Part shown: piece by piece, positions 46,417-63,029 of the stretch
Layout of the letters: each line of letters begins with the position of its first letter
How positions within the stretch are numbered: the stretch's first letter is position 1
NCBI GenBank assembly: GCA_965203445.1
Contig: OZ241883.1
Coordinates: forward strand, 1,152,001 to 1,216,000
From: Candidatus Oxydemutator sp.
GTDB taxonomy: Bacteria > Pseudomonadota > Gammaproteobacteria > Poriferisulfidales > Oxydemutatoraceae
Length of the DNA stretch: 64,000 bases
Direction of reading: 5' to 3'
Translations under genes and position numbers: made by a program
The notes under the pieces: model-generated
Told to the model about the DNA's origin: nothing
Databases searched by the model: none
The model's input: only the letters and a program-made list of their open reading frames with translations

Positions 46417-46509
46417 ACCCCTATTCTCCCTCATTTAGAGGTCTCCGAAAAACACGGGGCGATTCACAGAGGGAGAGGGTAGATGGGGCGGCATATTCAC
46501 CTTAGCACT

Positions 46510-46656
46510 TCAAATGAGACGCCAAGTTTCAATCAATACATGGTCACTTGTGACAAGTGGCTCGTTCGTTGCCAAAAGATTCTTCGCGCGGTTATTTTGG
46601 CGATCACCTCGATCAGCGGCGGCATACCAGACCGAGCTGTCCACAAAGATACTCAT
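46510..46656 (-). pseudogene. Truncated PIN-domain (VapC-like) toxin
   Basis: Own translation MSIFVDSSVWYAAADRGD...VTSDHVLIETWRLI* (48 aa); overlaps the antitoxin stop. Confidence 0.75.
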
Positions 46657-46916
46657 CGTGGATCGGAGCGATGACGCTTCTCTGCGCCGGTTGCTGCTCC
46701 GATCATCTGATCTTTTTGCGATGCGACGTCGGCACCGTTCGACGTGCCGAGATCAAAGACGATGGAACGGTCGCAGCTCCGTGGGGGTGTCCCGGCCAAA
46801 TCCTGATCTACGAGCCGGCGCATGTACTCGGCAATGGAAATACCAAGAGCGGCCGCACGCGCCCGGACTTTCGTATGCAACTCCGAATTGAGGGATATTT
46901 GAGTGCGAACCACCAT
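46653..46916 (-). CDS. RHH-type antitoxin (VapB-like)
   Basis: RTQISL...ARAAALGISIAEYMRRLV; directly upstream of the PIN fragment. Confidence 0.75.
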   Translation of the reverse strand: MVVRTQISLNSELHTKVRARAAALGISIAEYMRRLVDQDLAGTPPRSCDRSIVFDLGTSNGADVASQKDQMIGAATGAEKRHRSDPR

Positions 46917-47029
46917 TATGGCGCTACTATACCACCACCAACATTGATGGCGCCAACACGGGATACGCTTAATTTTATCAGGGTTGCATGAAACTGGCGT
47001 ATATAATTCGCGGTCGGCACGATGAGCAG

Positions 47030-50000: not shown

Positions 50001-50425
50001 CAAAACCGCTGCCGGCCTGGCACCATCCGCAAGTGAAGGCCGCGACCGGACACTTTGCCCGCCAGATTCAGGAAAAAGCGATTGCCGAACAACAGACGCC
50101 GCAACTGAACCTGCAACAACGCGAAGCCATCGAATATGTCAGAGTATTCTGCGACCACAAAGTGAGCGGCGACGAGGAAAAACAGCGTATGCGCCAAGCC
50201 ATGGAATGGATGAAAATCGGGCGCTCGCAGCCACTGCACCGGGACCTGCAAAAGCTGAAACGCAGCCAGAAAAAATCGCCGACGGTTCCGGCCCTCCAGC
50301 TGGAAGCCATCCTCAAAATCATAGACAAGCACGTGCCGCCCGGGACAGACCGCCCCGAGAAAACCGCACCGGCCACAAAGCCTGACCAGCCGCCGCGCAT
50401 CATCATCTCCCAGAGCTACCTGTAA
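47030..50425 (+). CDS. PLD-nuclease + SF2/SNF2-like helicase (restriction-like subunit)
   Basis: LHAKIY...GSSNLT, ADVVGLGKT, VDEAH, SATP, EGVNL, QRIGRINRIG. Confidence 0.9.
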   Translation: MSTKFFTNDGKGTLLGKFAAVFEHNPQLVAFDALAGYFRATGYFRLRPHLERIGQVRILVGIDVDKWSSAAHQTGLALRFGADQEQVAQDFRRKLKKEIADAPYDSDLEDGVLRFVEDVSSGKVVIKAHPSRRLHAKIYIFRPENFNEHSGGEVITGSSNLTEAGLGASDRDANYEFNVSLRDYDDVKFATDEFERLWREAVDILPEAVVAAKNETHLGDDCTANDLYLKLLIEYFGKEIEFDPDRITDVPSNLMRLNYQMDAVEQGYALLDRHRGFFLADVVGLGKTVIAIMIARKYFFMNGYPEYRSHTLVVCPPAVEANWRDTIDDFRLDNPHFITTGSLHKIDDPDKYDLIIVDEAHKFRNNTSESYAQLQRIANTPCRNGKLKRVILVSATPLNNRPDDLKNQILLFQDANNGTLDVNLARFFSEAERRYSQLIRKTGQDGKANKAKLHGLFEQIRLKIIEPLTVRRTRGDLLEHPLYAEDLREQGVVFPTINKPQTLLYPLSRKLNELYEQTVARIQNRNGAGLQYARHRLIEFLKPEHKKDYQRADFIVKQLTAIMKTLLVKRLDSSFHAFHRSLRRALDASDMLLKMWADDRIIIASSVDLQKYIEEGKEEDEGAELMAQLEREQATNPGLKILTRDDFEQGWHGLMERDHAILREMEQQWRQANTQPDPKLAELLKQLPATLLAPRQNPERKLVIFSEAADTTDYLAARLQEKDYRVLAVTAHNRGQQKDAIEQNFDANHAPDEQKSDYDVIIATEALAEGVNLHRANTIVNYDTPWNATRLMQRIGRINRIGSQAEQIYIYNFLPTEQVEGDINLRHRAQVKLQAFHSILGEDSQIYTPDEKYKSFGLFDKNVTEEREISERLACLMEIRRFREQHPDEFKRIKNLPLKIRNAVPVAGAVPDDDDGDDGGTIPGDHTVAPPNATLCFLRNPAHDAFYQVEGYRADDDGGDGNGDGGDDGRVKELGFLEAVAMMKAHKDAATKPLPAWHHPQVKAATGHFARQIQEKAIAEQQTPQLNLQQREAIEYVRVFCDHKVSGDEEKQRMRQAMEWMKIGRSQPLHRDLQKLKRSQKKSPTVPALQLEAILKIIDKHVPPGTDRPEKTAPATKPDQPPRIIISQSYL

Positions 50426-53400
50426 TGGCCGACAAACAAGCACTGCAAGCGCTATTCGCCGCCGCCTACGACCGCGACCGCTGGCTTAAGCAACTGCATG
50501 ATATTTTTGCCGGGCGCCTGGAGGAGTTTGCGGCACCGCACGCTTTGCCGGCGAAAGAAGGCGAGGATGCGCCCCCGCGCCACTATCTCGGCAACCTCAC
50601 CACCGCGGACGGCAAAAAACTCGGCATCTTCGAGATACCGGTGGGCACCAATATCCGCCTTGCCCGCAACCGCGTGCAACTGCGCAACCTCGTGGCGCGC
50701 CAAGTGCAGGAACATACCCTGAACGGCGCCCTGGCCGTCTATCCCGACGCCGACAACCGCTGGCGCTTCAGCTACATCGCCGTTACCGGAAAACTGGATG
50801 AGAAGGGCGCCATCACAAAAGAAGAAACCGCCCACAAACGCTACACCTACCTGTTGGGCGAAGGCATGCAGACCCGTACTGCGGTCGACCGCTTTGTCGC
50901 CTTGCCGACACCCCCCATCCTCGAACAACTCGACTATGCCTTTGCGACGGAACCGCTCAACAAAGTGTTCTACCAGGAGCTTTACCATTGGTACGAACGC
51001 GCCAAACTTCATGTGGTGTTCCCCAACGATGAACGGGAAGAGGAAGACACGCACGTCTCCACAAGCCTGATTCGCCTGCTGACCCGATTACTCTTTATCT
51101 GGTTTATGAAGGAAAAGGAACTGATCAATCAGGATTTCTTTGTCCTCGATAAGGTCAGACACATGATTGATTGGAACAGGGAGAGCAGCTACTACAAAGC
51201 CATCCTGCAAAACCTGTTTTTTGCCACTTTGAACCGCGAGATCCCAAAGCGCCGGTTCCGCACCACCAACGCCAAGGGCAAGCCGACCGGCAACAACTAC
51301 CTGGTGACCAATGTCTATCGCTATGAGCGCTATTTCAAAGGCATGAAAAAAGCGGAAATTATCAAGCTGTTCGCCCAAACCCCGTTCCTGAACGGCGGCC
51401 TGTTCGAGTGCCTGGACAGAGACGCCGATGAAGAGAAACAACGGGTTTATGAGAAAGACAGAACTATTCGCAAAGAGAGAAAAGAGAAACGAGCAATCCG
51501 CATGGACGGCTTTTCCGACCATGACAAAAACCGGCTGCGTGTGCCCAACGACCTGTTTTTCAACGACGACGAAGAACAACCCGGCCTCATCAACCTGCTT
51601 TCCCGATACCAGTTCACCGTGGAAGAAAGCATGCCGTTGGATGCAGACGTGGCGTTGGACCCCGAACTCCTGGGGTTGGTGTTTGAAAATCTGCTGGCAT
51701 CCTACAACCCCGAAACCGAGCAAACCGCCCGCAAAGCCTCCGGCTCCTACTACACCCCGCGCGAGATCGTCTCCTACATGGTGGACGAAAGCCTGAAAGC
51801 ATATTTTGCGCAAGCAACCGACGTGGCCGACACAAAGATCAACCGCTTGTTCCTGCCCCCGCAGGCAGGCAAGGATTCGACTACCGGCGCGGCAAGCGAA
51901 CTCACCGAGAATGAGACGACGGCCCTCATCCAGGCGATAGATACCATCAAGATCATTGATCCTGCGGTCGGCAGCGGCGCCTTTCCGATGGGGATATTAC
52001 AGCGATTGGTGCAGATACTCGGCATTGTTGATCCCGAAAACAAACGCTGGAAAAAACGGCAAACGGACATTATTGACAAACTGCCGGACACCGAGAGCCG
52101 CGAGCAGGCACGCAAGGAAGTGGAAACTATTTTCAGCGAAAAGAATCGTTTTAACGATTTCGGACGCAAGCTGTATCTGATCGAAAAGTGCATCCACGGC
52201 GTGGACATCCAGCCCATCGCCTGCCAGATTGCCAAGCTGCGCTTCTTCATCTCGCTGACCATCGAGCAGAAGCCGACCGATGACCCTCACGACAACCGCG
52301 GCATCAAACCACTCCCCAACCTCGAAACCAGGTTTGTCGCCGCCGATACGCTGCTGGGACTTGACAGACCGGCCCAACGCACATTGGGACAAACCGACGC
52401 CGTCAACCGGTTGGAACGGGAGCTGAACGCCAATCGGGAGCGACATTTTCGCATCACCACACGCAAATCAAAGATGGCGTGCTGGAAAAAGGACAAGGAA
52501 CTGCGAAACCAACTGGCCACCGAGCTGAAACAGGCCGGCTTCCCCGCCACCAACGCCGACAAAATTGCCCGCTGGGATCCCTACGACCAGAATGCCTCAG
52601 CAGCTTGGTTCGACCCTGCATGGATGTTCGGCGTCAAGGGTGGCTTTGATGTAGTTATCGGCAATCCACCCTATGTCGAGTCAAGAAATAGTTTGCTGCC
52701 AAATGAACTAAAGAATTCTTACGGAAAGCAGGTACTAAGTGACTGGAAAGAAACCTTACCTCGTGGAAGTGATTTGCTTATCTACTTTTACGCTCGCTCC
52801 TCGAAACTACTAAAGCGTGATTCAAGTTACGGCTGTTTTATCACTCAAAACGCTTGGCTAAGCACCGACTATGGGAAAAAATTTCAAAAGTTTTCAATCG
52901 GAAAACTCTCTTTCCAGAAGATCGTTGACACCTCCTCCAAATTCTTTCTCGATACCAAAAGCCAAAACATCAATGCAGTTATCACATTTTTTACTACGAA
53001 ACCATTGCAAACCATAGAATATGGGGTTGCTGATAGCAATATGACTGTTGCCTCAATGAAGAATATTAAAGCGAAGCAAACAATGAAATGGGGACACCTT
53101 TTTTCTATGCCACAATTCTTCGCGGATATATTGTCGAAAATGTCTGCTAACGCTGGTACGAGCAATACGATCAAGTTTGGACAAGGATTAAACTTCCCTC
53201 TGCAAGAATTAAACAAAGTGGGAGCCAAAATACCTATTATTGTCAAAACCTCGTGGTTCGTTGCCAAATCTGCCGACGGGCTGATACTTCAGGCTAACAG
53301 GAAAAAAGAAAAAATACCGGCACTGATTCTACCGCGTGGAGTGGGAAACCGGCACTATTGCACCTTTAATTTGTGCAGGGCATTTTCATACAGCCATGTA

Positions 53401-53787
53401 GAATTATATCTACCTGATGACTTACGAAATTCGGCAAAGCACTATTGCCTATGGCTCTATCTCAACTCTTCCTTTGTTTGGTTGTATAGAGAAATCACAG
53501 GTAGAAAGAATCTTGGGGGAGGCTTGTTGAAGGCCGAGGCAACGGATATGAAAGCATTGCCTGTTGATTTTGACTTTGATTTTGGCAAGGACGCAAAAAA
53601 GGTGTTTAATAGTATCCGAGATAGAACACCAATGCCCGTTTTGGAGGAAATTCATACGAAGGATCATATTCTCATAGACGAAATAGTGGCTAACTATTTT
53701 GGTTTTACAGATATGCAAGGAACCATTAGAGAAACTCTATCTGAACAGGTTAATTTTCGTCTGAACAGAGTGCGCCCCCAACACTGA
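50425..53787 (+). CDS. Eco57I/TaqI-class N6-adenine MTase with C-terminal TRD (type IIG-like)
   Basis: GSYYTP, IDPAVGSGAF, GVDIQ, GFDVVIGNPPY; coupled to the helicase by TAATG. Confidence 0.92.
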   Translation: MADKQALQALFAAAYDRDRWLKQLHDIFAGRLEEFAAPHALPAKEGEDAPPRHYLGNLTTADGKKLGIFEIPVGTNIRLARNRVQLRNLVARQVQEHTLNGALAVYPDADNRWRFSYIAVTGKLDEKGAITKEETAHKRYTYLLGEGMQTRTAVDRFVALPTPPILEQLDYAFATEPLNKVFYQELYHWYERAKLHVVFPNDEREEEDTHVSTSLIRLLTRLLFIWFMKEKELINQDFFVLDKVRHMIDWNRESSYYKAILQNLFFATLNREIPKRRFRTTNAKGKPTGNNYLVTNVYRYERYFKGMKKAEIIKLFAQTPFLNGGLFECLDRDADEEKQRVYEKDRTIRKERKEKRAIRMDGFSDHDKNRLRVPNDLFFNDDEEQPGLINLLSRYQFTVEESMPLDADVALDPELLGLVFENLLASYNPETEQTARKASGSYYTPREIVSYMVDESLKAYFAQATDVADTKINRLFLPPQAGKDSTTGAASELTENETTALIQAIDTIKIIDPAVGSGAFPMGILQRLVQILGIVDPENKRWKKRQTDIIDKLPDTESREQARKEVETIFSEKNRFNDFGRKLYLIEKCIHGVDIQPIACQIAKLRFFISLTIEQKPTDDPHDNRGIKPLPNLETRFVAADTLLGLDRPAQRTLGQTDAVNRLERELNANRERHFRITTRKSKMACWKKDKELRNQLATELKQAGFPATNADKIARWDPYDQNASAAWFDPAWMFGVKGGFDVVIGNPPYVESRNSLLPNELKNSYGKQVLSDWKETLPRGSDLLIYFYARSSKLLKRDSSYGCFITQNAWLSTDYGKKFQKFSIGKLSFQKIVDTSSKFFLDTKSQNINAVITFFTTKPLQTIEYGVADSNMTVASMKNIKAKQTMKWGHLFSMPQFFADILSKMSANAGTSNTIKFGQGLNFPLQELNKVGAKIPIIVKTSWFVAKSADGLILQANRKKEKIPALILPRGVGNRHYCTFNLCRAFSYSHVELYLPDDLRNSAKHYCLWLYLNSSFVWLYREITGRKNLGGGLLKAEATDMKALPVDFDFDFGKDAKKVFNSIRDRTPMPVLEEIHTKDHILIDEIVANYFGFTDMQGTIRETLSEQVNFRLNRVRPQH

Positions 53788-53820
53788 GTGCAAATCACTT
53801 GGGTGGCCAAGCCCATTAAG

Positions 53821-53931
53821 TCCACCAACACCACCGACACCAGCGCCCAAGAAACCAAAATCAACCACCTCGTATATAATCTCTACAACCTGACCCCAAA
53901 AGAAATCGCCGCATTGGAGCAGAAAAAATGA
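53821..53931 (+). pseudogene. Remnant of a type IIG MTase C-terminus (type A copy 1)
   Basis: Translates DTSAQETKINHLVYNLYNLTPKEIAALEQKK*; its TGA overlaps the next ATG. Confidence 0.75.
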
Positions 53932-55295
53932 ACAAACCAGCCAAGGTATTCATCACCTATTCACATCGCAATAAAGACGCGAGGGAAAAACTGAGCGAGC
54001 GCCTTGCGGTGATGGAGAAAAATGGGGAGATAGAAATCTGGCACGATAACGAAATACTCCCGGGCGACAGGTGGCGAGAAGAGATCTCCAAGAATCTTGC
54101 CGGTTCAGATATTCTGCTTCATCTTACTTCCGCGGCCAGCCTTGCCTCCGAAAACTGCAACAGAGAACTGACCGAAGCACTGCGAAGTGAGGAAAGGATA
54201 CGTAGGATTCCCATCATCCTCGAAGCTTGCGACTGGAAGCACGAACATGATCTCAGTCAGATTGAGGCACTTCCCGACAAAGGCAAACCTATCAACGAGT
54301 GGAAACCTAAGAGCAAAGGTTGGCAAAGTGTAGTCGACGGCCTACGCAAAGCTATCCAGAAAACCCGCCAGCTCATGCAGGAAGAGCAAAGTGAAGCACA
54401 GGCTTATTTGATGCTGCAAAATGGCAATTTTTTTGCGATATTAGGGCAACTGGAAGACGCAATAAACACTTATTCACAAGCCATTAAGATCAAATCAGAT
54501 TTTGCCGATGCCTATTGCAATCGCGGCATTGTTCATGCCAAGAAAGGCGACCATGACCAAGCCATCCGAGACTACAACCAAGCCATTGAACTAAACCCCG
54601 ATTTTGCCGAGGCCTATTACAATCGCGGCATTTCCTGCGAGAAGCAGGATAACCATAACCAAGCCATCCAGGATTACAGTAAAGCCATCGAACTAAAGCC
54701 CAGTTATACCGAGGCCTATAACAATCGCGGCGTTGCCTACGAGAAGCAAGGCAACCTTAACCAAGCCATCCAGGATTACAGTAAGGCCATTGAACTAAAT
54801 CCCAATTTTGCCAACTATTATTTCAATCGCGGCCTTGCCTACGAGAAGCAAGGCAACCTTAACCAAGCCATCCAGGATTGCAGTAAAGCCATTGAACTAA
54901 ATCCCGATTATGCCGAAGCCTATAACAATCGCGGCCTTGTCTACGAGAAGCAAGGCAACTTTAACCAAGCCATCCAGGATTACAGTAAGGCCATTGAACT
55001 AAATCCCAATTATGCCGATGCCTATTGCAATCGTGGCACTACTTACTTTGAACAGGGTGATTTTGACCAAGCCATCCGAGACTACAACCAAGCCATTGCG
55101 CTCCAGCCAGATTTTGCCGAGGCCTATTGCAACCGAGGTATAGTTTGGTTGTGCAAGCAAGCATGGAATGAAGCCAAGTCAGATTTGGAGACCGCCAAGG
55201 AAAAGGGCATGAACATTGCCAAGCGAATGTCTGACTTTGTAGAGAAATACCAGAGCCAACTACCGGAGGACATCATAGATATACTGACCGAATAA
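53928..55295 (+). CDS. TIR-domain + TPR protein (about 8 TPRs)
   Basis: VFITYSHRNK, IWHDNEILPG, SENCNREL, IPIIL; then AYxNRG repeats. Confidence 0.9.
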   Translation: MNKPAKVFITYSHRNKDAREKLSERLAVMEKNGEIEIWHDNEILPGDRWREEISKNLAGSDILLHLTSAASLASENCNRELTEALRSEERIRRIPIILEACDWKHEHDLSQIEALPDKGKPINEWKPKSKGWQSVVDGLRKAIQKTRQLMQEEQSEAQAYLMLQNGNFFAILGQLEDAINTYSQAIKIKSDFADAYCNRGIVHAKKGDHDQAIRDYNQAIELNPDFAEAYYNRGISCEKQDNHNQAIQDYSKAIELKPSYTEAYNNRGVAYEKQGNLNQAIQDYSKAIELNPNFANYYFNRGLAYEKQGNLNQAIQDCSKAIELNPDYAEAYNNRGLVYEKQGNFNQAIQDYSKAIELNPNYADAYCNRGTTYFEQGDFDQAIRDYNQAIALQPDFAEAYCNRGIVWLCKQAWNEAKSDLETAKEKGMNIAKRMSDFVEKYQSQLPEDIIDILTE

Positions 55296-55312
55296 GGCTT
55301 CTCCTTTCATTG

Positions 55313-55544
55313 CCCCCTCCCTCACCCGGCCTGCGGCCACCCTCTCCCAGAGGGAGAGGGTTTGGTTGACAGGAGTATCCCCACATAGGCCACCTTCATC
55401 CGCTTGGTGGACGCTATAATAGCCGCCAAATCCACCAATCCAACCGCCGACACCAGCCCCCAAGAAACCAAAATCAACCACCTCGCATATCAACTCTACA
55501 ACCCGACCCCGAAAGAAATCGCCGCTGTGGAAGACAAAACATGA
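55313..55544 (+). repeat. Inter-cassette spacer: palindrome + MTase C-terminal remnant (type A copy 2)
   Basis: CCCTCTCCCAGAGGGAGAGGG, then FIRLVDAIIAAKSTNPTADTSPQETKINHLAYQLYNPTPKEIAAVEDKT* overlapping the next ATG. Confidence 0.8.
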
Positions 55545-56875
55545 ATAATCAGACCGACAAAAACCAATTAGAAACAGTGCTGGAAATCATCAACCGCCTC
55601 GCCAAAGAATCGGTTAGCGGTGACTACATTTATCGTGGCGAACCCAAATGCTACGAGAAAGTATCATCCCGCCTCTACAGAGAAGAATGTAAGGATATAA
55701 AGGTTGATGGCTTTGACATTGAGGTTGTACAACAGGAAATACTAAAAGACGCTAAGCAATACACCACGCTGACAGATAAACTCGAAATTCTATCCGAACT
55801 CCAGCACTATGGCGGTAATACCAACCTGATAGACTTCACCACTGATTACCTGATCGCCCTTTTCTTTGCCTGTAACAGTTTGCTTGGCAAAGATGGTAAA
55901 GATGGCAGGGTGATCTTGCTGGAAAATACAGGCGAGTCTATTAACCAACCTCGAAATCCGCTCAATCGCATCATTGCCCAGAAGAGTAGATTCATCCGCC
56001 CGAAGCAAGGCTTCATTGAACCGAAAAAATATAAGGTCATTAAGATTTCAAAAGAGCTCAAGCCGCACATCTTGACGCACCTGCGAAAATCTCACGGCAT
56101 CTCCACGGAAACCATCTATAACGACCTACATGGATTCATAAGAAACCGAAGCATCCACCAAAGTGCCTACATAGAGTTCTATCGGGCATTTACCTATCAA
56201 GACAAAGGCGATAATGATGAGGCGATTAAACACTATACCGAAGCCATTAGACTCAATCCGAATTTAGTTGAGGCCTATAACAATCGCGGCCTTGCTTACT
56301 ATAGGAAAGATGACTACGACCAAGCCATCCAGGATTACAGTAAAGCCATTGACCTAAATCCTAATTATGCCAAAGCCCATTACAGTCGCGGCATTGTTTA
56401 CTATAGAAAAGGCGAACTTGATGAAGCCTTCCAAGACTTCACCCGAGCTATTGAACTACAGCCAGATTTTACCGATGCTTATTACAACCGCGGCGTTGCT
56501 TACTCTAGCAAAGGTGAATTTGATGAAGCTATCAGAGACTACAACCAAGCTATTGCGCTCAATCCAGATCATGCCGAAGCCTATAACAACCGTGGTGCTG
56601 CTTACGATAAGAAAGGTAATTTTGATAAAGCTGCCGAAGACTACAACCAAGCCATTACGCTCCAGCCAGACAATGCTGTTGCCTATTTCAACCAAGGTAC
56701 AGTCTGGTTGCGCAAGCAGGCATGGGATGCAGCCAAGTCAGATTTGAAGGCCGCCAAGGAAAAGGGCGCAGACATTGCCGAGCTATTTTCCAATGACTAT
56801 GGCAGCGTTTCAGCCTTTGAAGAGAGATACCATATTCAACTACCAGCGGACATCAGAGATATGCTGACCGCATAA
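55541..56875 (+). CDS. FRG-domain + TPR protein (about 6 TPRs)
   Basis: YIYRGE, LQHYGGNTNLIDFT, IALFFAC, NRIIAQKS; TPRs plus shared C-terminal cap. Confidence 0.88.
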   Translation: MNNQTDKNQLETVLEIINRLAKESVSGDYIYRGEPKCYEKVSSRLYREECKDIKVDGFDIEVVQQEILKDAKQYTTLTDKLEILSELQHYGGNTNLIDFTTDYLIALFFACNSLLGKDGKDGRVILLENTGESINQPRNPLNRIIAQKSRFIRPKQGFIEPKKYKVIKISKELKPHILTHLRKSHGISTETIYNDLHGFIRNRSIHQSAYIEFYRAFTYQDKGDNDEAIKHYTEAIRLNPNLVEAYNNRGLAYYRKDDYDQAIQDYSKAIDLNPNYAKAHYSRGIVYYRKGELDEAFQDFTRAIELQPDFTDAYYNRGVAYSSKGEFDEAIRDYNQAIALNPDHAEAYNNRGAAYDKKGNFDKAAEDYNQAITLQPDNAVAYFNQGTVWLRKQAWDAAKSDLKAAKEKGADIAELFSNDYGSVSAFEERYHIQLPADIRDMLTA

Positions 56876-56892
56876 GGATTTCCATTTCATTA

Positions 56893-57077
56893 CCCCTCCC
56901 CCGGCCTTCGGCCACCCTCTCCCAGAGGGGGAGGGTTTGGCTGATAGGAATATCCGCTGTGAAGGATAGCCACAATCAGGGAGGATAGGCTACTATAATC
57001 AAACAAAACTTGACTACCTAATCTACCGAAGCACAATCTCAGCCAAGCCGAAATCGCCACTTATGGAGAAAAAATGA
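56893..57077 (+). repeat. Inter-cassette spacer: palindrome + type B remnant
   Basis: Palindrome, then GCCACAATCAG...CTATAATCAAACA...TTGACTACC...GCCAAGCCGAAA shared with 59649; frameshifted LDYLIY..NLSQAEIA. Confidence 0.7.
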
Positions 57078-58579
57078 ACGAACCGGCCAAACTGTTCATC
57101 ACCTATTCGCATCGGGACAAAGACGCGAAGGACAAACTGATCGAGCGTCTTGCGGTGATGGCCCACAATGGGGAGATAGAAACTTGGCACGACAACGAAA
57201 TTCTCCCAGGCGACCAATGGAAGGAAAAAATCTCCGACCGTCTCGCCGGTTCGGATATTCTGCTTTATCTTACTTCCGCGGCCAGCCTTGCCTCCGAAAA
57301 CTGCAACAAGGAACTGACCGAAGCACTGCAAAGCAGGGGAAGGATACGTACGATTCCCGTCATCCTTGAAGCTTGCGACTGGCAGGAACATAAGCTCAGT
57401 CAGTTTGAGGTGCTCCCCCACAAAGGCAACCCCGTCAACGAGTGGAAGCCTGAGAGCAAAGGTTGGCAAAATGTAGTCGAAGGCATACGCAAAGTTATCC
57501 AGGAAATCCAGGCTATCCAGGCAACCCGCCGGCCCATGCAAGAAAAGCAAAGTGAAATACTGGCTTATTTGATGCTGCAAAATGGCAATTTTTTTGTGAT
57601 GTTGGGGCAACCAGCAAACGCAATAGCCGCTTACTCACAAGCCATCAAGATCAAACCGGATTTTGCCGCAGCCTATAATAATCGCGGCGCCGCATACGAT
57701 AAGAAAGGTAAATTTGATGAAGCTATCGAGGACTTCAACCAAGCCATTGAACTGAACCCCAATCATGCTGAGGTCTACTACAATCGCGGCATTGCTCATG
57801 GCAAAAAAGGCAACTATGACCAAGCCATCCGAGACTGCAACAAAGCCATTGCGCTCCGGCCAAGTGATGCCGATACCTATAACAATCGCGGCATTGTCTA
57901 TGAAAAGCAAGGCAACCCTAACGCAGCCATCCAGGATTACAGTAAAGCCACTGAACTAAATCCCGATTATGCCGAGGCCTATTACAATCGCGGCATTGCT
58001 CATGGTAAAAAAGGCGACTATGACCAAGCCATCCAAGACTTCGACAAAGCCATTGAACTAAACCTGAATTATGCCGGGACCTATAACAATCGCGGCGTTG
58101 TCTACGAGAAGCAAGGCAACCATGACCAAGCCATCCGAGACTACAATAAAGCCATTGCGCTAAACCCCAATTTTGCCGAGGTCTATTGCAATCGCGGCGT
58201 TATCTATAAGAAACAAGGCAACTCTAATCAAGCCATCCAGGATTTCAGTAAAGCCATTGAACTAAATCCCAATTTTACCGGGGCCTATTACAATCGCGGC
58301 CTTGCTCATGGCAAAAAAGGCGACTATGACCAAGCGCTCCGAGACTTCAACCAAGCCATTGAACTACACCCTAATTATGCCAAAGCCTATTTCTACCGAG
58401 GCATGGTCTGGTTGCTCAAGCAAGCATGGGATAAAGCCATGTCAGATTTGAATACCGCCAGGGGAAAGGGCCTGAATATTGCCGAGCTGTTTTCCAGCGC
58501 CTTTGGCAGCGTTCCTGCCTTTGAACAGAAATACCGTATCCAACTACCGCAGGACATCAAAGATATGCTGACCGCATGA
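57074..58579 (+). CDS. TIR-domain + TPR protein (about 9 TPRs)
   Basis: Paralog of 53928; SENCNKEL. Confidence 0.9.
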   Translation: MNEPAKLFITYSHRDKDAKDKLIERLAVMAHNGEIETWHDNEILPGDQWKEKISDRLAGSDILLYLTSAASLASENCNKELTEALQSRGRIRTIPVILEACDWQEHKLSQFEVLPHKGNPVNEWKPESKGWQNVVEGIRKVIQEIQAIQATRRPMQEKQSEILAYLMLQNGNFFVMLGQPANAIAAYSQAIKIKPDFAAAYNNRGAAYDKKGKFDEAIEDFNQAIELNPNHAEVYYNRGIAHGKKGNYDQAIRDCNKAIALRPSDADTYNNRGIVYEKQGNPNAAIQDYSKATELNPDYAEAYYNRGIAHGKKGDYDQAIQDFDKAIELNLNYAGTYNNRGVVYEKQGNHDQAIRDYNKAIALNPNFAEVYCNRGVIYKKQGNSNQAIQDFSKAIELNPNFTGAYYNRGLAHGKKGDYDQALRDFNQAIELHPNYAKAYFYRGMVWLLKQAWDKAMSDLNTARGKGLNIAELFSSAFGSVPAFEQKYRIQLPQDIKDMLTA

Positions 58580-58596
58580 GGATTCCCATTTCATTG

Positions 58597-58828
58597 CCCC
58601 CTCCCTCACCCGGCCTGTGGCCACCCTCTCCCAGAGGGAGAGGGTTTGGTGAAGAAGAATATCCCCTGCATAGGCCATCTTCATCTGCCTGATGGACGTT
58701 ATAATAGTGCTATGCCCACCAAAGCTGGCTGCCGACACCAGCCTCCGAAAAACCAAAATCAACCACCTCATCTATCAACCCTGCAACCTGACCCCGAAAG
58801 AAATCGCCACCGTGGAGAAACAAAGTGA
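58597..58828 (+). repeat. Inter-cassette spacer: palindrome + type A remnant copy 3
   Basis: Palindrome, then ADTSLRKTKINHLIYQPCNLTPKEIATVEK. Confidence 0.78.
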
Positions 58829-59625
58829 GCACACAACCAATTGAAGCAGTTGCTGAATACCTTAAGCAAGTCTCAACAATAAAACAGCAGTGGCAGTCTC
58901 CTGTATTAGTCTTTCGCGGCCAGGAAAATGAAGAGTGGAGCTTGGAATCTTCGGCGGAACGCCGCCTGAAGAAGTCCGAGAGCAGAAAAAGAATAAACAA
59001 ACAGTTATTCATTAAGTATCACAAAGACCTGTTAAAGGAATGCAAGCTGAAGAACTATGACAGGCGGGAAGGCAAATCATTGCATGAACTGGAACTCCTG
59101 GCCGATCTCCGACACCATGGCGCCGCTACTTGCCTCATGGATTTCACGCGTAGTGCTCTCGTTGCTCTATGGTTTGCCTGCGAAAAATCAGAGGCGAATG
59201 GAAAAGTGTTTGTTGTCAACACCGCCAATAAAAAAACCTTTTCGGGAATAGAACCCGACGATATAGACAGCCAATCAATAGAAGACATTCTCAGATTTCA
59301 AACTCGTAAAAAGAAGCGAGTCAAACTACAGGAAGAAAGAACATCCAAAACAGTACAAAGCAGACGTTTTTGGCACTGGGCACCAGCACGCCTGAACGAA
59401 CGCATAACGGCGCAACATTCGCTGTTCCTCTTCGGCCCCCCTACCTCTGGAGAACCGGAGGCAGGAACGATACTTATAGAATCAGGGGAAAAAGCGCAAA
59501 TAAGGCGGGAACTGGAAGAAATACACGGGATCAATGAAGAGTCTCTCTTCCCGGATTTTGCAGGTTTTGCCTACACCCAGCGATACCGTGTCTGGGGTCA
59601 ATACTTGGACAAAAGCTTGGCATAG
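58825..59625 (+). CDS. FRG-domain protein without TPRs (possibly 3'-truncated)
   Basis: VFRGQ, LRHHGAATCLMDFT, VALWFAC, ERITAQHSLF, GINEESLFPD. Confidence 0.85.
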   Translation: MSTQPIEAVAEYLKQVSTIKQQWQSPVLVFRGQENEEWSLESSAERRLKKSESRKRINKQLFIKYHKDLLKECKLKNYDRREGKSLHELELLADLRHHGAATCLMDFTRSALVALWFACEKSEANGKVFVVNTANKKTFSGIEPDDIDSQSIEDILRFQTRKKKRVKLQEERTSKTVQSRRFWHWAPARLNERITAQHSLFLFGPPTSGEPEAGTILIESGEKAQIRRELEEIHGINEESLFPDFAGFAYTQRYRVWGQYLDKSLA

Positions 59626-59648
59626 AGTGATATTCTCCACAAGAGATG

Positions 59649-59761
59649 GCCACAATCAGAGTAGACAGGCTGCTATAATCAAACATAAGGTTGACTACCC
59701 AATCCAACCAATATTACTATCTCGGCCAAGCCGAAACCGCCGCTTAATGGAGGAACAATGA
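59649..59761 (+). repeat. Type B remnant spacer
   Basis: Homologous to 56969-57077; contains TGCTATAAT; TGA overlaps the next ATG. Confidence 0.7.
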
Positions 59762-61017
59762 ACGAACCGGCCAAACTGTTCATCACCTATTCGCATCGGG
59801 ACAAAGACGCGAAGGACAAACTGAGCGAGCACCTTGCGGTGATGGCCCGAAATGGGGAGATAGAAACTTGGCACGACAACGAAATTCTCCCGGGCGACCA
59901 ATGGAAGGAAAAAATATCCGACCGTCTCGCCGGTTCGGATATTCTGCTTTATCTTACTTCCGCGGCCAGCCTCGCCTCCGAAAACTGTAACAAGGAACTG
60001 GTCGAAGCGCTGCAAAGTGGGGAAAGAATACAGCCAATTCCCATCATCCTTGAAGCTTGCGACTGGAAGCAACATAAGCTCAGTCAGTTTGAGGTGCTCC
60101 CCCACAAAGGCAAACCCGTCAACAAGTGGGAGCCTGAGGGCAAAGGCTGGCAAAGCGTAGTTGAAGGCATACGCAAAGTTGCCCAGGAAACCCGCCGGCC
60201 TATACAAGAAGAGCATAGTGAACCACTGGCTGACGCGCTGCTGGAAAATGGTAATTTTTTTATGATGCTGGGGCAGCTGGCAAGCGCGATAGACGCTTAT
60301 TCACAAGCCATTAAGATCAAGCCGGATTTTGTCGAAGCCTATCGCAACCGCGGCGCTGCCCACGGTATGAAAGACGAACATGACCAAGCCATCGAGGACT
60401 TCACCCGCGCTATCGAACTACAGCCAGATTTTGCCAAAGCCTATTGCAACCGCGGCATCGTCTACAGCAGGACAGGCGAACAGGGCCAGGCCGTCCGAGA
60501 CCTCACCCGCGCGATTGAACTACGGCCGGATTTTGCCAGAGCCTATAACAGCCGCGGTGTTGCTTACGGCAGGAAAGGTAAATTTGATGAAGCTATCAGA
60601 AACTTCGACCAGGCCATTGCGCTCCAGCCAGATTATGCCGAGGCCTATTACAATCGCAGCATTACCTACGAGAGGCGAGGCAACCTTGACCAGGCCATCG
60701 AGGATTATAATAAAGCCGCTGATACCTATATCAAGCGCGGCAACGCTCATGGCAGGAAAGGCGACTATGGCCGAGCCATTCGGGACTACAACCATTCCAT
60801 TGCGCTCAATTCAGATGATGCTGCCGCCTATTGCAATCGAGGTATGTTCTGGTTGCTCAAGCAAACATGGGATAAAGCCAAGTTGGATTTGAGGACCGCC
60901 AGGGACAAGGGCGCGGACATTGCCGAACTGTTTTCCAATGACTATGGCAGCGTTTCAGCCTTTGAAGAAAAATACCATCAACTGCCGGAGAACATCAAAA
61001 ATATGCTGACCGCATGA
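59758..61017 (+). CDS. TIR-domain + TPR protein (about 7 TPRs, one shortened)
   Basis: TIR near-identical to 57074; TPR5 lacks its IELNPx linker. Confidence 0.9.
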   Translation: MNEPAKLFITYSHRDKDAKDKLSEHLAVMARNGEIETWHDNEILPGDQWKEKISDRLAGSDILLYLTSAASLASENCNKELVEALQSGERIQPIPIILEACDWKQHKLSQFEVLPHKGKPVNKWEPEGKGWQSVVEGIRKVAQETRRPIQEEHSEPLADALLENGNFFMMLGQLASAIDAYSQAIKIKPDFVEAYRNRGAAHGMKDEHDQAIEDFTRAIELQPDFAKAYCNRGIVYSRTGEQGQAVRDLTRAIELRPDFARAYNSRGVAYGRKGKFDEAIRNFDQAIALQPDYAEAYYNRSITYERRGNLDQAIEDYNKAADTYIKRGNAHGRKGDYGRAIRDYNHSIALNSDDAAAYCNRGMFWLLKQTWDKAKLDLRTARDKGADIAELFSNDYGSVSAFEEKYHQLPENIKNMLTA

Positions 61018-61036
61018 GGACTTCCATTTTATTATT

Positions 61037-61230
61037 CCCTCACCCGGCCTTCGGCCACCCTCTTCCGTTCTTTATTCCCTCTCCCCCTCTGGGGGAGAAC
61101 CTTCATCTTCCCCCTCTCCCTCTGGGAGAGGGCCGGGGTGAGGGCCCTTGCATAACTCCTCACCCTCACCCGGCCTGTGGCCACCCTCTCCCAGAGGGAG
61201 AGGGTTTGGTTGACAGGAATATCCCCTGCA
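61037..61230. repeat. Expanded cluster of palindromic elements
   Basis: Multiple CCCTCACCCGGCC.TxGGCCACCCTCTCC and CCCTCTCCC..GGGAGAGGG units, including an inverted one. Confidence 0.8.
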
Positions 61231-61234
61231 AAAG

Positions 61235-62023
61235 ATGAACCGGCTTTCTGAACAAGTGGACAGTTATTACAGTTGGCTGCGGGCGAAGACGCATCTGCCC
61301 GCGGCAGGCGACAACGGCTGGCATTTGATTTCCACTCCTTTCCTGGGGTTGTTTAACGACACCATAGAGATATACGCCAGAAAGCGGGGCGACAACATCG
61401 TTCTCTCGGATGACGGCAAAACCTTGCACGACCTGGAACTGACGGGGATTTCCTTTTCCCGCTCATCCGCCCGCAAAGAGGCGCTGGAGCAGGTGTTGCT
61501 CAACTACGGCATTACGGAAAACCAGGGCGAATTGACGGTGCACGCGCAAGAGACCAATTTTCCGCAAAAGAAACACGACCTGATTCAGGCGATGCTGGAG
61601 ATCGGAGAGCTCCAGGTGCCGGCAAAGCATACCGTCGCCAAAGTTTTCAAGGACGACGTGCGCGCTTATCTGGATGAGCAGGAAATTGTCTATACGCCCC
61701 AGTTTATTTCCAAGGGTGCCGTCGGCATTGAGTTCACGTTTGATTTTCAAGTGGCCTACCGGGAAAGGGAAATTGTGTTGAAGTGCTTCAACGGCATCAA
61801 CAAAACCTCGTTGTCCAGTTTTTTGTTCATGTGGAAGGACATCAGTCCATTCAGGCGGGAGCTGACCGACAAGGACATATCGGGGCTTGCCTTCGTCAAT
61901 AACGAAGACAAGAACATCAAACGCGAATTTTTGGACGCCCTGAAGTCCGGCGGCGCGGATTACATCCTGTGGCAGGACCGACACGCGCCCGCAAACCTTG
62001 CAAAACTGAAAGAAGCCGCATAA
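61235..62023 (+). CDS. DUF1828/DUF1829-like protein
   Basis: ISTPFLGLFNDTIEIY...LSDDGKTL...FKDDV...SKGAVGIEFTFDF pattern. Confidence 0.7.
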   Translation: MNRLSEQVDSYYSWLRAKTHLPAAGDNGWHLISTPFLGLFNDTIEIYARKRGDNIVLSDDGKTLHDLELTGISFSRSSARKEALEQVLLNYGITENQGELTVHAQETNFPQKKHDLIQAMLEIGELQVPAKHTVAKVFKDDVRAYLDEQEIVYTPQFISKGAVGIEFTFDFQVAYREREIVLKCFNGINKTSLSSFLFMWKDISPFRRELTDKDISGLAFVNNEDKNIKREFLDALKSGGADYILWQDRHAPANLAKLKEAA

Positions 62024-62225
62024 AAGACAGGCTTGAGGAAGCTGTTTCATTACCCCCCTCTCCCTCCGGAAGAGGGCTTCTTCATTCTCCCTCTCCCCAT
62101 CAAAAACATAATCTATAATCGAACAAAAGCCGACCACCCAATCCAACCAGAGCACAATCTCAGCCGAACCGAAATCACCGTTAATGGTAATCTACAATAA
62201 ACGGGCATTTTGAGGCCGACGAACC

Positions 62226-63029
62226 ATGTCGCACCGAGATCGCCCCTTCGACGTCCAACCTATTCCTGCCGCCGGTCTGTCGGACCTCAATCTGGTTGGG
62301 TTTGAAAACGAGTATCTGCCCCGGGCGTTTTCCGATGAGGTGCTGGCCGCCAATGATCGCAGTCTGCATCAGCAACTCGCCGCCACAAAAATGATCGCAG
62401 CCGGCGCGCAGCCGGACGCCGATCAGGTCGCCGCGACTGTGCTCGGCCTTCTCACCATCGGCAAGAACCCGCAGGATTTTCTGCCCGGCGCCTACGTGCA
62501 ATTTCTCAGGATCAACGGCACCGAACGCAGCGACGACATCAGCGACGACGAGACCATGCGCGGCGCGATTCCCGACCTGCTCCGGCGCGTAGACGACAAG
62601 TTGACGGCGCACAACCGCGTCGCGGTCGCCATCGCCACCGGCACGGTCGAACGACGCACCGCGCTATATCCCGTCGAGGCGCTGCAACAAATCATCTGGA
62701 ACGCCGTCATGCACCGGACATATGAGGCGACCAACGCGCCGATCCATATTTACTGGTTCGACGACCGCATCGAGATCACCAGTCCCGGCGGCGCGTTTGG
62801 CATGGTCGCCGCCGACAACTTCGGGCAACCCGGCATCGTTGATTACCGCAACCCCAATCTGGCGGACGCGATGAAAACGCTCGGCTATGTCCAGCGCTTT
62901 GGCGTGGGAATATCCATCGCCAAACGGCAGTTGGCGGACGCGGGACATCCGCCGCCCGAGTTCGATATTTCCGCCAATCACGTGCAGGTCACAATCCGGC
63001 GCGTCGCACCCGCAGGGATGAAAAAATGA
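62226..63029 (+). CDS. RecG-C/HATPase_c_4-type ATP-binding protein lacking its N-terminal AlbA_2 domain (probably truncated)
   Basis: YPVEALQQIIWNAVMHRTY, DRIEITSPGG, RNPNLA, VQRFGVGI. Confidence 0.7.
   Translation: MSHRDRPFDVQPIPAAGLSDLNLVGFENEYLPRAFSDEVLAANDRSLHQQLAATKMIAAGAQPDADQVAATVLGLLTIGKNPQDFLPGAYVQFLRINGTERSDDISDDETMRGAIPDLLRRVDDKLTAHNRVAVAIATGTVERRTALYPVEALQQIIWNAVMHRTYEATNAPIHIYWFDDRIEITSPGGAFGMVAADNFGQPGIVDYRNPNLADAMKTLGYVQRFGVGISIAKRQLADAGHPPPEFDISANHVQVTIRRVAPAGMKK

Follow-up and report, generated by a model that had tools for sequence, protein, structure and literature searches.

Three known kinds of arrangement are involved in the locus described here: the embedding of defence genes, insertion that leaves a long target duplication, and the swapping of specificity domains. 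Insertion of restriction-modification (R-M) units with long target duplication is said to have been reported originally in H. pylori. Furuta et al. (2010, PMC2853133) describe repeats overlapping gene 3' ends, with examples from type I-IV systems, and mention tRNA integration with long repeats. PMC2853133 and PMC3983042 also describe target recognition domains (TRDs) of type IIG and other methylases that are substituted allelically or moved. The work on embedded defence genes (Hma and the PDC candidates) ascribes embedding to a "genomic sink"; the mechanism of insertion is not given, and neither "recombination" nor "remnant" occurs in its main text.

We describe a two-gene restriction-type defence system, i.e., a PLD-SNF2 helicase-nuclease and an Eco57I-type methylase, with a row of co-oriented defence genes that has grown behind the 3' end of the methylase (Table 1). 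It lies in a 64,000-nt stretch of DNA, here called the window. Inspection of ORFs and sequence recovered the gene layout and spacer positions given in the initial annotation. The helicase stop codon overlaps the start of the methylase, and a helicase homologue lies immediately 5' of the methylase in 50 of the 94 loci with upstream room. Among PADLOC models, the helicase matches "HKD+Snf2" C3a139 best (4.4e-47), followed by DrmD and HmaA. HmaB is absent from the best 25 PADLOC models for the window methylase and HmaC was not found, so the system is Hma-like, not Hma.

Table 1. Features of the methylase locus and the gene row behind it, in window coordinates.
Feature	Position	Strand	Basis
PLD(HKD)-SNF2 helicase, 1145 aa	46988..50425	+	Pfam PLDc_2, SNF2-rel_dom, Helicase_C
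Methylase core, residues 1-750, through NPPY motif	50425..52674	+	Pfam Eco57I, N6_Mtase
Replaced methylase 3' module (specificity region), residues 751-1120	52675..53787	+	Composition, P0001 comparison
Orphan tail A1	53788..53927	+	HMM E 4e-13 genome-wide; TBLASTN vs P0021 1.7e-8
TIR-TPR1, 455 aa	53928..55295	+	Pfam TIR_2 + TPR; PADLOC ThsB-like TIR
REP-type hairpin, CCCTCTCCC-loop-GGGAGAGGG	55314..55386	.	Repeat family D6, genome-wide repeat
Orphan tail A2 (longest, ~50 codons)	55387..55540	+	HMM E 3.3e-20; TBLASTN vs P0008 5e-13
FRG-TPR, 444 aa	55541..56875	+	Pfam FRG + TPR; PADLOC PDC-S15
Repeat B1	56937..57073	+	nhmmer E 4e-37
TIR-TPR2, 501 aa	57074..58579	+	Pfam, PADLOC
Orphan tail A3	58671..58824	+	HMM E 2.6e-8; TBLASTN 1.1e-5
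FRG protein without TPR, 266 aa	58825..59625	+	Pfam FRG; PADLOC PDC-S15 6.8e-35
Repeat B2	59617..59757	+	nhmmer E 1.5e-36
TIR-TPR3, 419 aa	59758..61017	+	Pfam, PADLOC
REP hairpin run	61018..61234	.	Repeat families D6, D10, D11
DUF1828/DUF1829 protein, 262 aa	61235..62023	+	Pfam; PADLOC PDC-M24B 3.4e-89
Repeat B3, 37 nt 5' of next start	62080..62189	+	nhmmer E 7e-21
HATPase_c_4 protein, 267 aa	62226..63029	+	Pfam
ParA-like ATPase	63026..64000, extends to equivalent of 64042	+	Pfam
Repeat B4, outside window	equivalent of 65236-65350		nhmmer

Past the ParA-like ATPase lie REPs, repeat B4 and a 1102-aa TIR-TPR-HATPase gene. The REP core motif occurs in 34 copies dispersed across the genome. A 74-aa ORF at 61014-61238 is made up of REP hairpins, lacks a Pfam match and is probably spurious; the DUF1828/DUF1829 gene that follows is not preceded by a tail. 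GC3 climbs with distance from the methylase, from 0.42 beside it to 0.76 in the ninth segment. The cassettes, at 0.48-0.59, are far under the genome's native genes (0.70-0.81), and the HATPase_c_4 gene (0.757) is near native values. The array had been called integrase-free. Indeed, Pfam found no integrase among window ORFs from 43050 to 64000, and an Rfam scan of 46000-64000 returned an IS3 frameshift element and nothing else, including no attC-like family.

By sequence comparison, the lineage A spacers are clearly identifiable as displaced 3' ends (the last 30-52 codons) of the Eco57I-type methylase family. A tail HMM, made from the C-termini of 73 of the 120 homologues among the matches listed, was searched against the complete 2.38-Mb genome in 62,834 six-frame pieces; A2, A1 and A3 were the sole matches, the next best having an E value of 6.3. 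With full-length P0007, P0008 and P0021 as TBLASTN queries, the 16.7 kb that follow the methylase aligned only with their last 30-52 residues, at A1-A3, and gave no remnant of core or TRD at E<=1. These are the nearest tail-bearing homologues, and their tails are the closest to A1-A3. Both searches are significant at all three spacers, in agreement with the initial annotation, whose quoted tail peptide, FIRLVDAIIAAKSTNPTADTSPQETKINHLAYQLYNPTPKEIAAVEDKT with its stop, reads at 55398-55544. Together, A1, A2 and A3 form direct-repeat family D7, with 74-87% identity over 106 nt. The overlap of tail stop and passenger start that had been described is present as ATGA in A1 (with TIR-TPR1) and A2, and as GTGA in A3 (with FRG).

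A degenerate methylase tail had been proposed in front of six genes; this stands for A1-A3 and is not shown for the B spacers. The latter are a true four-copy repeat family (nhmmer E 4e-37 to 7e-21 for B1-B3), for which sequence comparison does not establish a methylase origin. TBLASTN of P0007, P0008 and P0021 against the same 16.7 kb left the B spacers unmatched, the A profile searched genome-wide did not detect them, and protein-HMM scores against shuffles were mixed (p = 0.09 for B1, 0.33 for B2, 0.047 for B3 and 0.003 for B4). When the search was limited to the B spacers, the A profile matched the last 45-65 nt of B4 (E 0.0015) and B1 (E 0.013), and B1 is possibly a heavily decayed, frameshifted tail. 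In 14 upstream regions of foreign TIR homologues, the B profile matched none and the A profile four (E<=0.0052).

The window methylase is itself a recombinant, with a breakpoint just past the NPPY motif. It shares 91% identity with its closest relative, P0001, over 812 aligned residues; identity is high to about residue 745, drops just past NPPY (about residue 750, nt 52670), and downstream of this motif there is no similarity to P0001. Composition breaks at the same place, with GC at 0.59 before and 0.39 after it, and GC3 at 0.705 and 0.42, respectively. The core as a whole is native-like (GC 0.556, GC3 0.705). The 3' module (GC 0.405, GC3 0.42) ends in a stop of its own, without the family tail, and A1 begins immediately after this new stop. 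The C-terminus type of the window methylase, "...NFRLNRVRPQH", is also found in P0002-P0006 and others. The coincident breaks in identity and composition support the proposed swap of R-M specificity.

The orphan-tail scar is general within this methylase family. We scanned 131 loci, of which 129 have a methylase core and 73 were eligible; at least one orphan tail occurs in 22 of the 73. Before de-duplication, all 33 orphans (33/33) were downstream of and co-oriented with the methylase, with none upstream or antisense. Clustering at 95% identity gave 102 clusters, 63 of them eligible, and left 21 orphans in 18 of the 63, in a search of both strands over ~614 kb upstream and ~467 kb downstream. 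An orphan lies downstream in 9 of the 18 clusters with a tail-less methylase versus 9 of the 45 with a tail-bearing one. However, of the 18 orphans in this de-duplicated set that have an ORF behind them, only 6 are within 30 nt of the ORF start and 9 within 120 nt.

Methylase 3'-end repeats (12 in 8 loci) are 38-212 nt long with 80-94.5% identity; 10 of the 12 terminate -10 to +39 nt from the stop, and their left ends are variable. Similarly, orphan left ends range from HMM position 5 to 37, and some orphans take in 80-150 residues of the specificity region's end. Such variation argues against a fixed att site; the term "integron-like" in the initial annotation holds as a loose analogy only. 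The genes between methylase and orphan or behind orphans (33 ORFs, 11 loci) are varied and defence-like, with TIR-TPR, AAA_13/PDC-S06, GmrSD, AlbA_2, deaminase-HATPase_c_4 and radical SAM types; they include no integrase or resolvase, save for one IS1595 transposase. In support of the initial interpretation, intact methylases ending in the tail helix lie directly 5' of an orthologous TIR-TPR gene in other genomes, in loci L060 and L138; TIR-TPR1 of the window is 48% identical to the L060 protein, whose gene is immediately behind the intact tail.

What distinguishes related loci is entire modules of TRD, tail and passenger, set between a core and an orphan tail that are both conserved; this supports the incoming modules that had been proposed. 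In L070 and L075, the cores are 99.7% identical, the TRDs unrelated, the tails 92% identical and the passengers unrelated, and the orphan tail with the next gene is again 94.5% identical. The cores of L044 and L113 are 96% identical; L113 carries another TRD, an orphan and a 747-aa ORF ahead of an orphan matching the L044 resident tail at 89-94% identity. Against such exchange, L112 and L033 differ by ~1.1 kb at the end of the tail, with the orphan absent. Comparisons with the nearest tail gave a mixed outcome. The L113 orphan is 94% identical to the L044 resident tail and 81% to the other tail in L113, and the L103 orphan shares 54% identity with the resident tail of L103. Elsewhere, in several loci, an orphan is nearest its own resident tail (L056: 0.88, versus 0.68 to others), which in-place duplication would fit too.

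Within the window, much of the copy number reflects local block duplication. In a tree with 15 foreign homologues, the four TIR domains of the array group as a single clade (support 98/96), in which TIR1, behind an A tail, is sister to TIR2, TIR3 and TIR4, behind B repeats; tail type thus tracks the tree. The segment from TIR1 to A2 is colinear with that from TIR2 to A3 (79% identity), and B1 plus TIR2 with B2 plus TIR3 (85%). TIR-TPR2 is 62% identical to TIR-TPR1, and TIR-TPR3 is 64% identical to TIR-TPR2; among representative genomes, the top foreign TIR homologue shares 66% identity with TIR-TPR2. FRG-TPR and TIR-TPR2 are homologous in their TPR parts. Given the monophyly and the colinear blocks, serial foreign capture is unnecessary for most copies here, and the earlier picture of six independent modules captured in series does not fit. 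Homologues occur in 4 of 41 relatives, own genome included, with at most 50% identity outside it, and the best locus from genome and metagenome scans reaches 55%; the array was not found in the close relatives covered (41 relatives, genome and metagenome scans), nor was a donor, empty site or intermediate for the window seen.

Module recombination at the methylase tail followed by local duplication is the best explanation overall, and one that we consider somewhat probable. Methylases of this family have a hypervariable specificity region followed by a conserved "tail" of ~50-70 codons, with the next gene usually beginning at the methylase stop or close to it. As DNA, the tail is conserved where the segments on both sides of it vary, and so we read it as a recombination handle. 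A related allele would recombine in through a crossover within the conserved core on the left and a junction on the right that lies at or inside the old tail. Its specificity region, tail and passenger would arrive as one module in place of the previous 3' part; the displaced tail and passenger would stay further downstream, this tail decaying from its 5' side. Repeated tails and repeated TPR and REP sequences would then permit cassettes to be duplicated or replaced locally. We infer that recombination was homologous or homology-facilitated illegitimate. The tails may also have a role, if any, in passenger expression. In the window, an older set of tail-gene units would have been followed by local duplication of tail-TIR-TPR-REP-tail blocks, then by gene exchange in the interval from an A tail to the B repeat that follows (FRG versus FRG-TPR). 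Most recently in this inferred order, a low-GC specificity module with its own stop would have replaced everything past NPPY and orphaned A1.

A purely local origin would begin with one ancestral unit of methylase tail and TIR-TPR (with or without FRG), which unequal crossing-over at TPR, REP or tail repeats would have multiplied in tandem; its copies would diverge, lose or swap domains and decay, and inter-genomic capture would be limited to one specificity-region swap. Such a history accommodates the single TIR clade with TIR1 as sister to the rest, the colinear blocks that include tails, the shared TPR, the 66% identity of the best foreign TIR homologue and the REP hairpins, which are native genome-wide repeats. 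We nevertheless regard it as unlikely. Between the two FRG genes, identity is just 30% and the architecture differs, despite the 74-87% identity of their A tails, and tails or B repeats also precede the unrelated HATPase_c_4 gene. The low cassette GC3 indicates that the material is foreign, even if duplicated later. Moreover, the scar accompanies unrelated passengers in 18 of 63 independent clusters, and the locus pairs show module exchange directly.

Quite improbable, in our view, is long target duplication, a poorly understood process of R-M units in which tens to hundreds of target bases are duplicated; a passenger would be inserted at the methylase stop, and the orphan would be a copy of the recipient's own tail. 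The orphans behind tail-less methylases, in 9 of 18 clusters and at A1 in the window, are instead displacement products, and the L113 and L103 orphans depart from the tails of their own loci; L070 and L075, furthermore, differ in TRD as well as passenger. The process would suit the direct repeats with variable left ends and right ends mostly near the stop, the absence of mobility genes and the orphans nearest their own resident tails, and PMC2853133 documents it for type I-IV systems. Very improbable is site-specific capture in a true integron analogue, with an att site in the tail, a recombinase elsewhere and circular cassettes. Strict polarity and co-orientation, repeat right ends near the stop codon in most cases, and weak Y1-transposase-like matches (under the Pfam cut-off) in the first post-methylase gene of L018 and L028 are what it offers, set against a window in which integrase, resolvase and attC-like families were not found, the near absence of recombinases from the 33 ORFs, left ends that vary and extend up to 150 residues further upstream, and inter-cassette hairpins that are genome-wide REPs.

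Compared with known systems, the locus resembles embedded defence genes in having co-oriented defence genes inside or behind a helicase-methylase system, and the passenger families of this and the other loci overlap PDC candidates: FRG (PDC-S15), DUF1828/9 (PDC-M24B), AAA_13 (PDC-S06) and GmrSD-like proteins. What differs is that orphan tails here provide a physical footprint that locates entry at the 3' end of the methylase. With long target duplication, the locus shares flanking direct repeats, tens to hundreds of bases long and often at a gene 3' end, the absence of mobility genes and the deviant GC of the insert. There, however, the R-M unit is the insert and any host sequence the target, whereas here the methylase 3' end is the repeated target and other defence genes are the inserts; events recur at one place, and several orphans resemble displaced alleles more than copies. 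As in the known TRD substitutions, a specificity region is exchanged between conserved flanks, as in the window chimera; the exchange here can additionally take the downstream passenger along and leaves the old tail.

Much as here, rhs and cdiA genes have a conserved body with a variable 3' module, and new modules displace earlier toxin-immunity modules, whose fragments accumulate downstream with partner genes. The displaced piece in those systems is the variable toxin tip with its immunity gene, whereas here it is the conserved tail that remains recognisable, with a separate downstream gene as displaced cargo and the TRD mostly lost. The present arrays also resemble integrons, and tandem islands at tRNA or tmRNA 3' ends, in the co-orientation of cassettes beside a fixed entry point and in the copies of the target 3' end, but IntI, attI, attC and an integrase were not found here and the repeat boundaries are variable. 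The same scar in unrelated bacteria hints at how defence genes come to be placed behind such systems.

Three of the spacers in the gene array behind the window's Eco57I-type methylase are orphan copies of a methylase C-terminal tail, i.e., of the conserved last ~50–70 codons of this methylase family. Using 73 of the best 120 methylase homologues, we made an HMM of their C-termini and searched it against all six-frame pieces of the whole genome, a single contig of 2.38 Mb (63.6% GC) in which the window spans positions 1152001–1216000. The model matched the lineage A spacers A2 (E = 3.3e-20), A1 (4e-13) and A3 (2.6e-8), and those three only. Similarly, when three full-length homologues were compared by TBLASTN with the 16.7 kb behind the methylase, their last 30–52 residues matched at A1–A3 only, and no remnant of the core (the methylase up to its NPPY motif) or of the specificity region (TRD) was found in that stretch. 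The nearest tail-bearing homologues have C-terminal sequences very similar to the A spacers. A1 starts right behind the methylase's new stop codon, and all three spacers adjoin the start of the next gene. Together, the HMM and TBLASTN searches bear out the initial annotation, which had read the A spacers as methylase C-termini. The tail lies beyond the TaqI_C domain, which in the homologue P0008 ends at residue 1093 of 1151; solved structures span residues 739–1073 only of this protein. There is no Pfam model for the tail, and the three A peptides have no Pfam match at E ≤ 1.

Features of the array and of its surroundings (window positions unless stated otherwise)
Feature	Position	Strand	Remark
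IS3-family transposase fragment (HTH_21, rve_3)	45497–46330	−	just upstream of helicase gene
ALIL frameshift pseudoknot of the IS3 fragment	46022–46138	−	99 bits
PLD-SNF2 helicase	46988–50425	+	stop overlaps next start
Eco57I-type methylase	50425–53787	+	Pfam Eco57I, 3.3e-29
TIR-TPR1	start 53928	+	preceded by A1
FRG-TPR	start 55541	+	preceded by REP hairpin, then A2
TIR-TPR2	start 57074	+	preceded by REP, then B1
FRG	start 58825	+	preceded by REP, then A3
TIR-TPR3	start 59758	+	preceded by B2
DUF1828/DUF1829	start 61235	+	preceded by three REP hairpins
HATPase_c_4	start 62226	+	preceded by REP, then B3; overlaps ParA-like gene
ParA-like gene	start 63026	+	overlaps HATPase_c_4 gene
B4, 1102-aa TIR-TPR-HATPase gene and 435-aa ORF	locus L061, 2190–6964 (window equivalent 65190–69964)		
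REP-like hairpins, examples	genome 915775–916169 and 1847604–1851113; window 55340, 58624 and 61112–61204		

The array extends past the range initially assigned to it, since a fourth lineage B repeat (B4), an 1102-aa gene and a 435-aa ORF lie downstream. Beyond the window, more REPs and a ~1 kb stretch lead to B4, which is directly followed by the 1102-aa gene; its product combines TIR, TPR, HATPase_c_3 and HATPase_c domains, and the 435-aa ORF has no family match. The cassettes are compositionally foreign, with a GC3 of 0.48–0.59 versus 0.70–0.81 in native-like genes. Across the first nine segments, GC3 increases with distance from the methylase, a gradient that fits younger material lying nearest the methylase, the paralogues among these segments not being independent points. 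The hairpins between cassettes belong to a native REP family (CCCTCTCCC-loop-GGGAGAGGG; 34 core copies genome-wide), strongly clustered in the array and a few other places in the genome, and are probably not cassette sites. A promoter and terminator consensus scan of 53500–63100 found no excess over shuffled sequence (7 vs 9.2; 10 vs 13.8). Elsewhere in the window, a D12-class adenine methylase (357 aa) overlaps a 431-aa ORF without Pfam or PADLOC match (43050–45247, + strand), a pair that may be another small restriction-type unit of the same island, and a 2934-aa ORF occupies 34153–42957 on the − strand, opposite to the array.

The lineage B spacers were likewise first described as methylase tails. 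They are a true repeat family of four copies (E = 7e-21 to 4e-37); their methylase origin was not established by protein HMM, TBLASTN or DNA profiles. TBLASTN with full-length methylase homologues gave no match in the B spacers, and shuffle-based p values for the methylase-tail protein HMM were 0.09 for B1, 0.33 for B2, 0.047 for B3 and 0.003 for B4. The A profile matches B only when the search is limited to the B spacers (E = 0.0015 and 0.013), over the last 45–65 nt before the start codon. Upstream of foreign TIR genes, the B profile matched 0 of 14 regions and the A profile 4 of 14. A DNA profile made from foreign tails is too insensitive here, as even A1–A3 score only E = 1.8e-6 to 0.014 with it. 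We regard a decayed methylase tail as about an even bet for the origin of B. All four B copies contain a TATAAT-like box and three of the four a TTGAC box, with matches to TTGAC-16/18-(C/T)ACnAT inside B1 and B2; these boxes are a lead toward a promoter role, nothing more.

Much of the array's copy number is due to local duplication. The four array TIR domains form one clade relative to 15 foreign homologues (support 98/96). Within it, TIR1, the copy with an A tail in front, is the sister of the three copies with B repeats in front (TIR2, TIR3 and TIR4). Moreover, colinear blocks of DNA include the spacers: the block from TIR1 through A2 is 79% identical to that from TIR2 through A3, and B1 plus TIR2 is 85% identical to B2 plus TIR3. 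Simple tandem duplication of one unit, which the initial annotation had set against its own reading, thus describes the TIR genes with their upstream repeats, but does not fit the whole array. The FRG and FRG-TPR genes both lie behind similar A tails, yet share 30% identity and have different architectures, and HATPase_c_4 and DUF1828/9 are unrelated units. The similarity between TIR1 and TIR2 begins ~26 nt before the start codon, at the point where the A and B elements meet. Contigs of four sequencing runs break at the repeats, the listed joints being short-sided or within TPR repeats. A second sequencing study contains parts of the array at roughly 95–99% identity, none of which spans a cassette boundary.

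The same scar is found in other genomes. We gathered loci of methylase relatives from representative genomes (55) and metagenomes (76); 73 of the 129 loci with a recognizable core were eligible, i.e., their methylase frame was closed and ≥2 kb of downstream sequence was available. Among these, 55 methylases end in the tail, and 22 loci have at least one orphan tail in short frames. In the full set, all 33 orphans are downstream of the methylase and on its strand; none was upstream or antisense, despite 614 kb of upstream sequence having been searched versus 467 kb downstream. After clustering at 95% identity, there were 21 orphans in 18 of 63 eligible clusters. Eight foreign loci also contain direct repeats of the resident methylase 3′ end (12 repeats, 38–212 nt, 80–94.5% identical). 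The right ends of these repeats are mostly a few bases from the stop codon, while their left ends vary from −41 to −170 nt relative to it. Orphan tails begin at HMM positions 5 to 37, and some orphans also cover 80–150 residues from the end of the specificity region. Of the 18 orphans followed by an ORF in the de-duplicated set, 6 are at most 30 nt from its start and 9 at most 120 nt.

The genes neighboring the tails are diverse and mostly defense-like: TIR-TPR, AAA_13 (PDC-S06), GmrSD, AlbA_2, deaminase-HATPase_c_4, radical SAM, Bro-N, DUF3800 and PIN. One IS1595 transposase and two weak Y1-transposase-like matches below the Pfam cut-off were also seen; apart from the IS1595 gene, no recombinase was found among 33 ORFs of foreign orphan-bearing loci. 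Searching with the TIR domain instead identified 14 foreign loci, mostly in long-read Poribacteria genomes. A same-strand tail match lies upstream in 7 of the 14, in four of them <300 nt from the start of the TIR gene; the orphan tail in L139 is full-length (96 bits) and adjoins the TIR start codon. The anticipated arrangement of an intact methylase directly upstream of a TIR gene occurs in two loci, L138 and L060, where the methylase ends just before the TIR gene. Other arrangements were also seen. One Poribacteria chromosome carries two methylase genes 9.3 kb apart, each followed by a TIR gene (L142 and L143); the two TIR domains are nearly identical, another local duplication of a methylase-TIR unit. 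In L010 (2340–17538), on a Poribacteria chromosome, a helicase gene precedes three tandem methylase paralogues, of the tail type, the type with the window's alternative C-terminus, and the tail type, in that order.

Pairs of closely related loci are mosaics in which whole modules differ. L070 and L075 share a core (99.7% identity) and a tail (92%), with unrelated specificity regions and unrelated passengers, i.e., the genes after the tail; beyond the passengers, similarity resumes in an orphan tail and the first part of the gene behind it (94.5%). The cores of L044 and L113 are 96% identical, and their TRDs differ. The specificity module of L113 is of a different type and ends in a stop codon of its own; behind it come an orphan tail, a 747-aa ORF and a second orphan tail, giving two tails versus the one in L044; this second orphan is 89–94% identical to the resident tail of L044, and a more distal gene is common to both at 67%. 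Orphans lie behind the methylase in 9 of 18 clusters whose methylase has no tail of its own versus 9 of 45 clusters with a tail, and one junction between a tailless methylase and an orphan is kept in L028, L069, L108 and L113. As a separate observation, L071 and L075 differ from L018, L072 and L097 by a 624-nt insertion in the methylase gene; these alleles are otherwise 90–92% identical.

The methylase of the window is likewise chimeric. It is 91% identical to its closest relative, P0001, over 812 aligned residues, and this identity stops just past NPPY at about residue 750. The same point marks a drop in GC (0.59 to 0.39) and in GC3 (0.705 to 0.42). The module exchange initially proposed is thus seen in the two mosaic pairs and in this chimera; the serial capture proposed with it is not needed for most copies in the array, which we put down to local duplication. 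A methylase homologue is present in 4 of 41 related genomes, its own included, and the array in none of them; scans of genomes and metagenomes returned no methylase locus above 55% identity. The same genome encodes a second methylase paralogue, 64% identical over residues 1–854 (genome 524995–532650; L005 and beyond). The two proteins begin almost identically, but the C-terminus of this paralogue differs and lacks the tail. A 1316-aa ORF lies behind it, no helicase gene was seen directly upstream, and the local GC is 0.48–0.58.

How might such scars arise? The orphans could stem from another methylase copy that has since degraded, a reading we reject for the window, where neither core nor TRD remnants were found. 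They could also be artefacts of assembly, which we reject because orphans differ from resident tails by 6–46%. In-place duplication of the target, as in “insertion with long target duplication,” is possible for some loci, namely those in which the orphan is nearest its own resident tail. The combined orphan evidence fits recombination anchored in the conserved methylase core, with the right-hand junction falling within or beside the old tail. Where an orphan tail already exists, this junction would be homologous; elsewhere it would be illegitimate, for which homology-facilitated illegitimate recombination is a model. The useless 5′ part of the tail remnant would then be eroded. This core-anchored route is in line with left ends that vary, right ends that hardly do, orphans that resemble alleles, and the lack of a recombinase. 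Such scars are not unique to the array locus: a direct repeat of 269 nt (88.5% identical, 12.9 kb apart; genome 2228514–2228781 and 2241376–2241644) is a second scar of the displaced-3′-end kind in the same genome.

Embedding in or behind restriction-type operons is known for defense genes, and new systems have been discovered from that position. Orphan methylase tails offer a general mark that sequence searches can pick up; it points to entry at the 3′ end of the methylase gene and gives the polarity of insertion and a rough order of events. Such marks could serve to date and count insertions in many genomes and to find new passenger defense genes. They also suggest a possible coupling between the switching of specificity and the turnover of effectors. 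We propose tentatively, and consider rather unlikely, that the tail of this widespread family of helicase-partnered methylases is a recombinase-independent capture handle across phyla, with core and tail homology allowing whole modules of specificity domain, tail and defense gene to be traded between genomes. If so, a single event would bring both a new restriction specificity and an additional effector; older effectors would stay downstream behind decaying tails, which may serve again as promoters or ribosome-binding regions of these effectors. The handle would then be the missing mechanism behind “embedded” defense genes and a homology-based counterpart of the integron.

Among known systems, the integron is the one to which the array was initially likened, and the resemblance is geometric only. 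Among 14 ORFs in 43050–64000, a Pfam search found no IntI-type integrase; the only mobility gene is the IS3-type fragment, which carries an ALIL frameshift element. The TPR genes are followed by hairpins, as cassettes are by attC sites, but these hairpins belong to the genome-wide REP family, and no relevant Rfam family was matched at E ≤ 1. Furthermore, an integron has a fixed crossover point, whereas the left ends of the orphans and of the repeats vary. The initial interpretation is partly supported, by the displaced A tails, the chimeric methylase and the mosaic pairs; independent capture of the TIR copies is not supported.

The methylase itself has the gamma-class methylase and C-terminal specificity region of type IIG enzymes (Eco57I/MmeI class), matches PADLOC REase_MTase_IIG (8.7e-60), and has relatives with TaqI_C. 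No fused nuclease domain was detected in its first 380 residues. Because the PLD nuclease-helicase is encoded by a separate upstream gene, the system looks like a split, helicase-dependent form of type IIG. It is also Hma-like, yet its PADLOC matches lack the full set of HmaA, HmaB and HmaC: HmaA is only the third-best PADLOC model for the helicase (2.4e-35), HmaB is absent from the methylase's best 25 models (type IIG, DrmMI, PglX, MTase_II), and HmaC was not found. According to Payne et al., who left the reason open, embedded and co-oriented defense genes are often found in Hma, BREX, DISARM and type I systems; their candidates overlap with the passenger families found here. In the literature covered, we found no account of orphan methylase tails before embedded defense genes. 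Furuta et al. (PMC2853133) describe insertion with long target duplication and allelic substitution of specificity domains in type IIG genes. Like such insertions, the foreign repeats and A1–A3 are target-derived direct repeats of >30 bp without mobility genes; an empty, single-copy allele, which also characterizes them, was not found for the window among its relatives or in the scans. Lastly, the analogy drawn with Rhs/CDI orphan arrays holds as a likeness of process, the proteins being unrelated: A1–A3 are displaced 3′ fragments, each followed by what may be a former partner gene.
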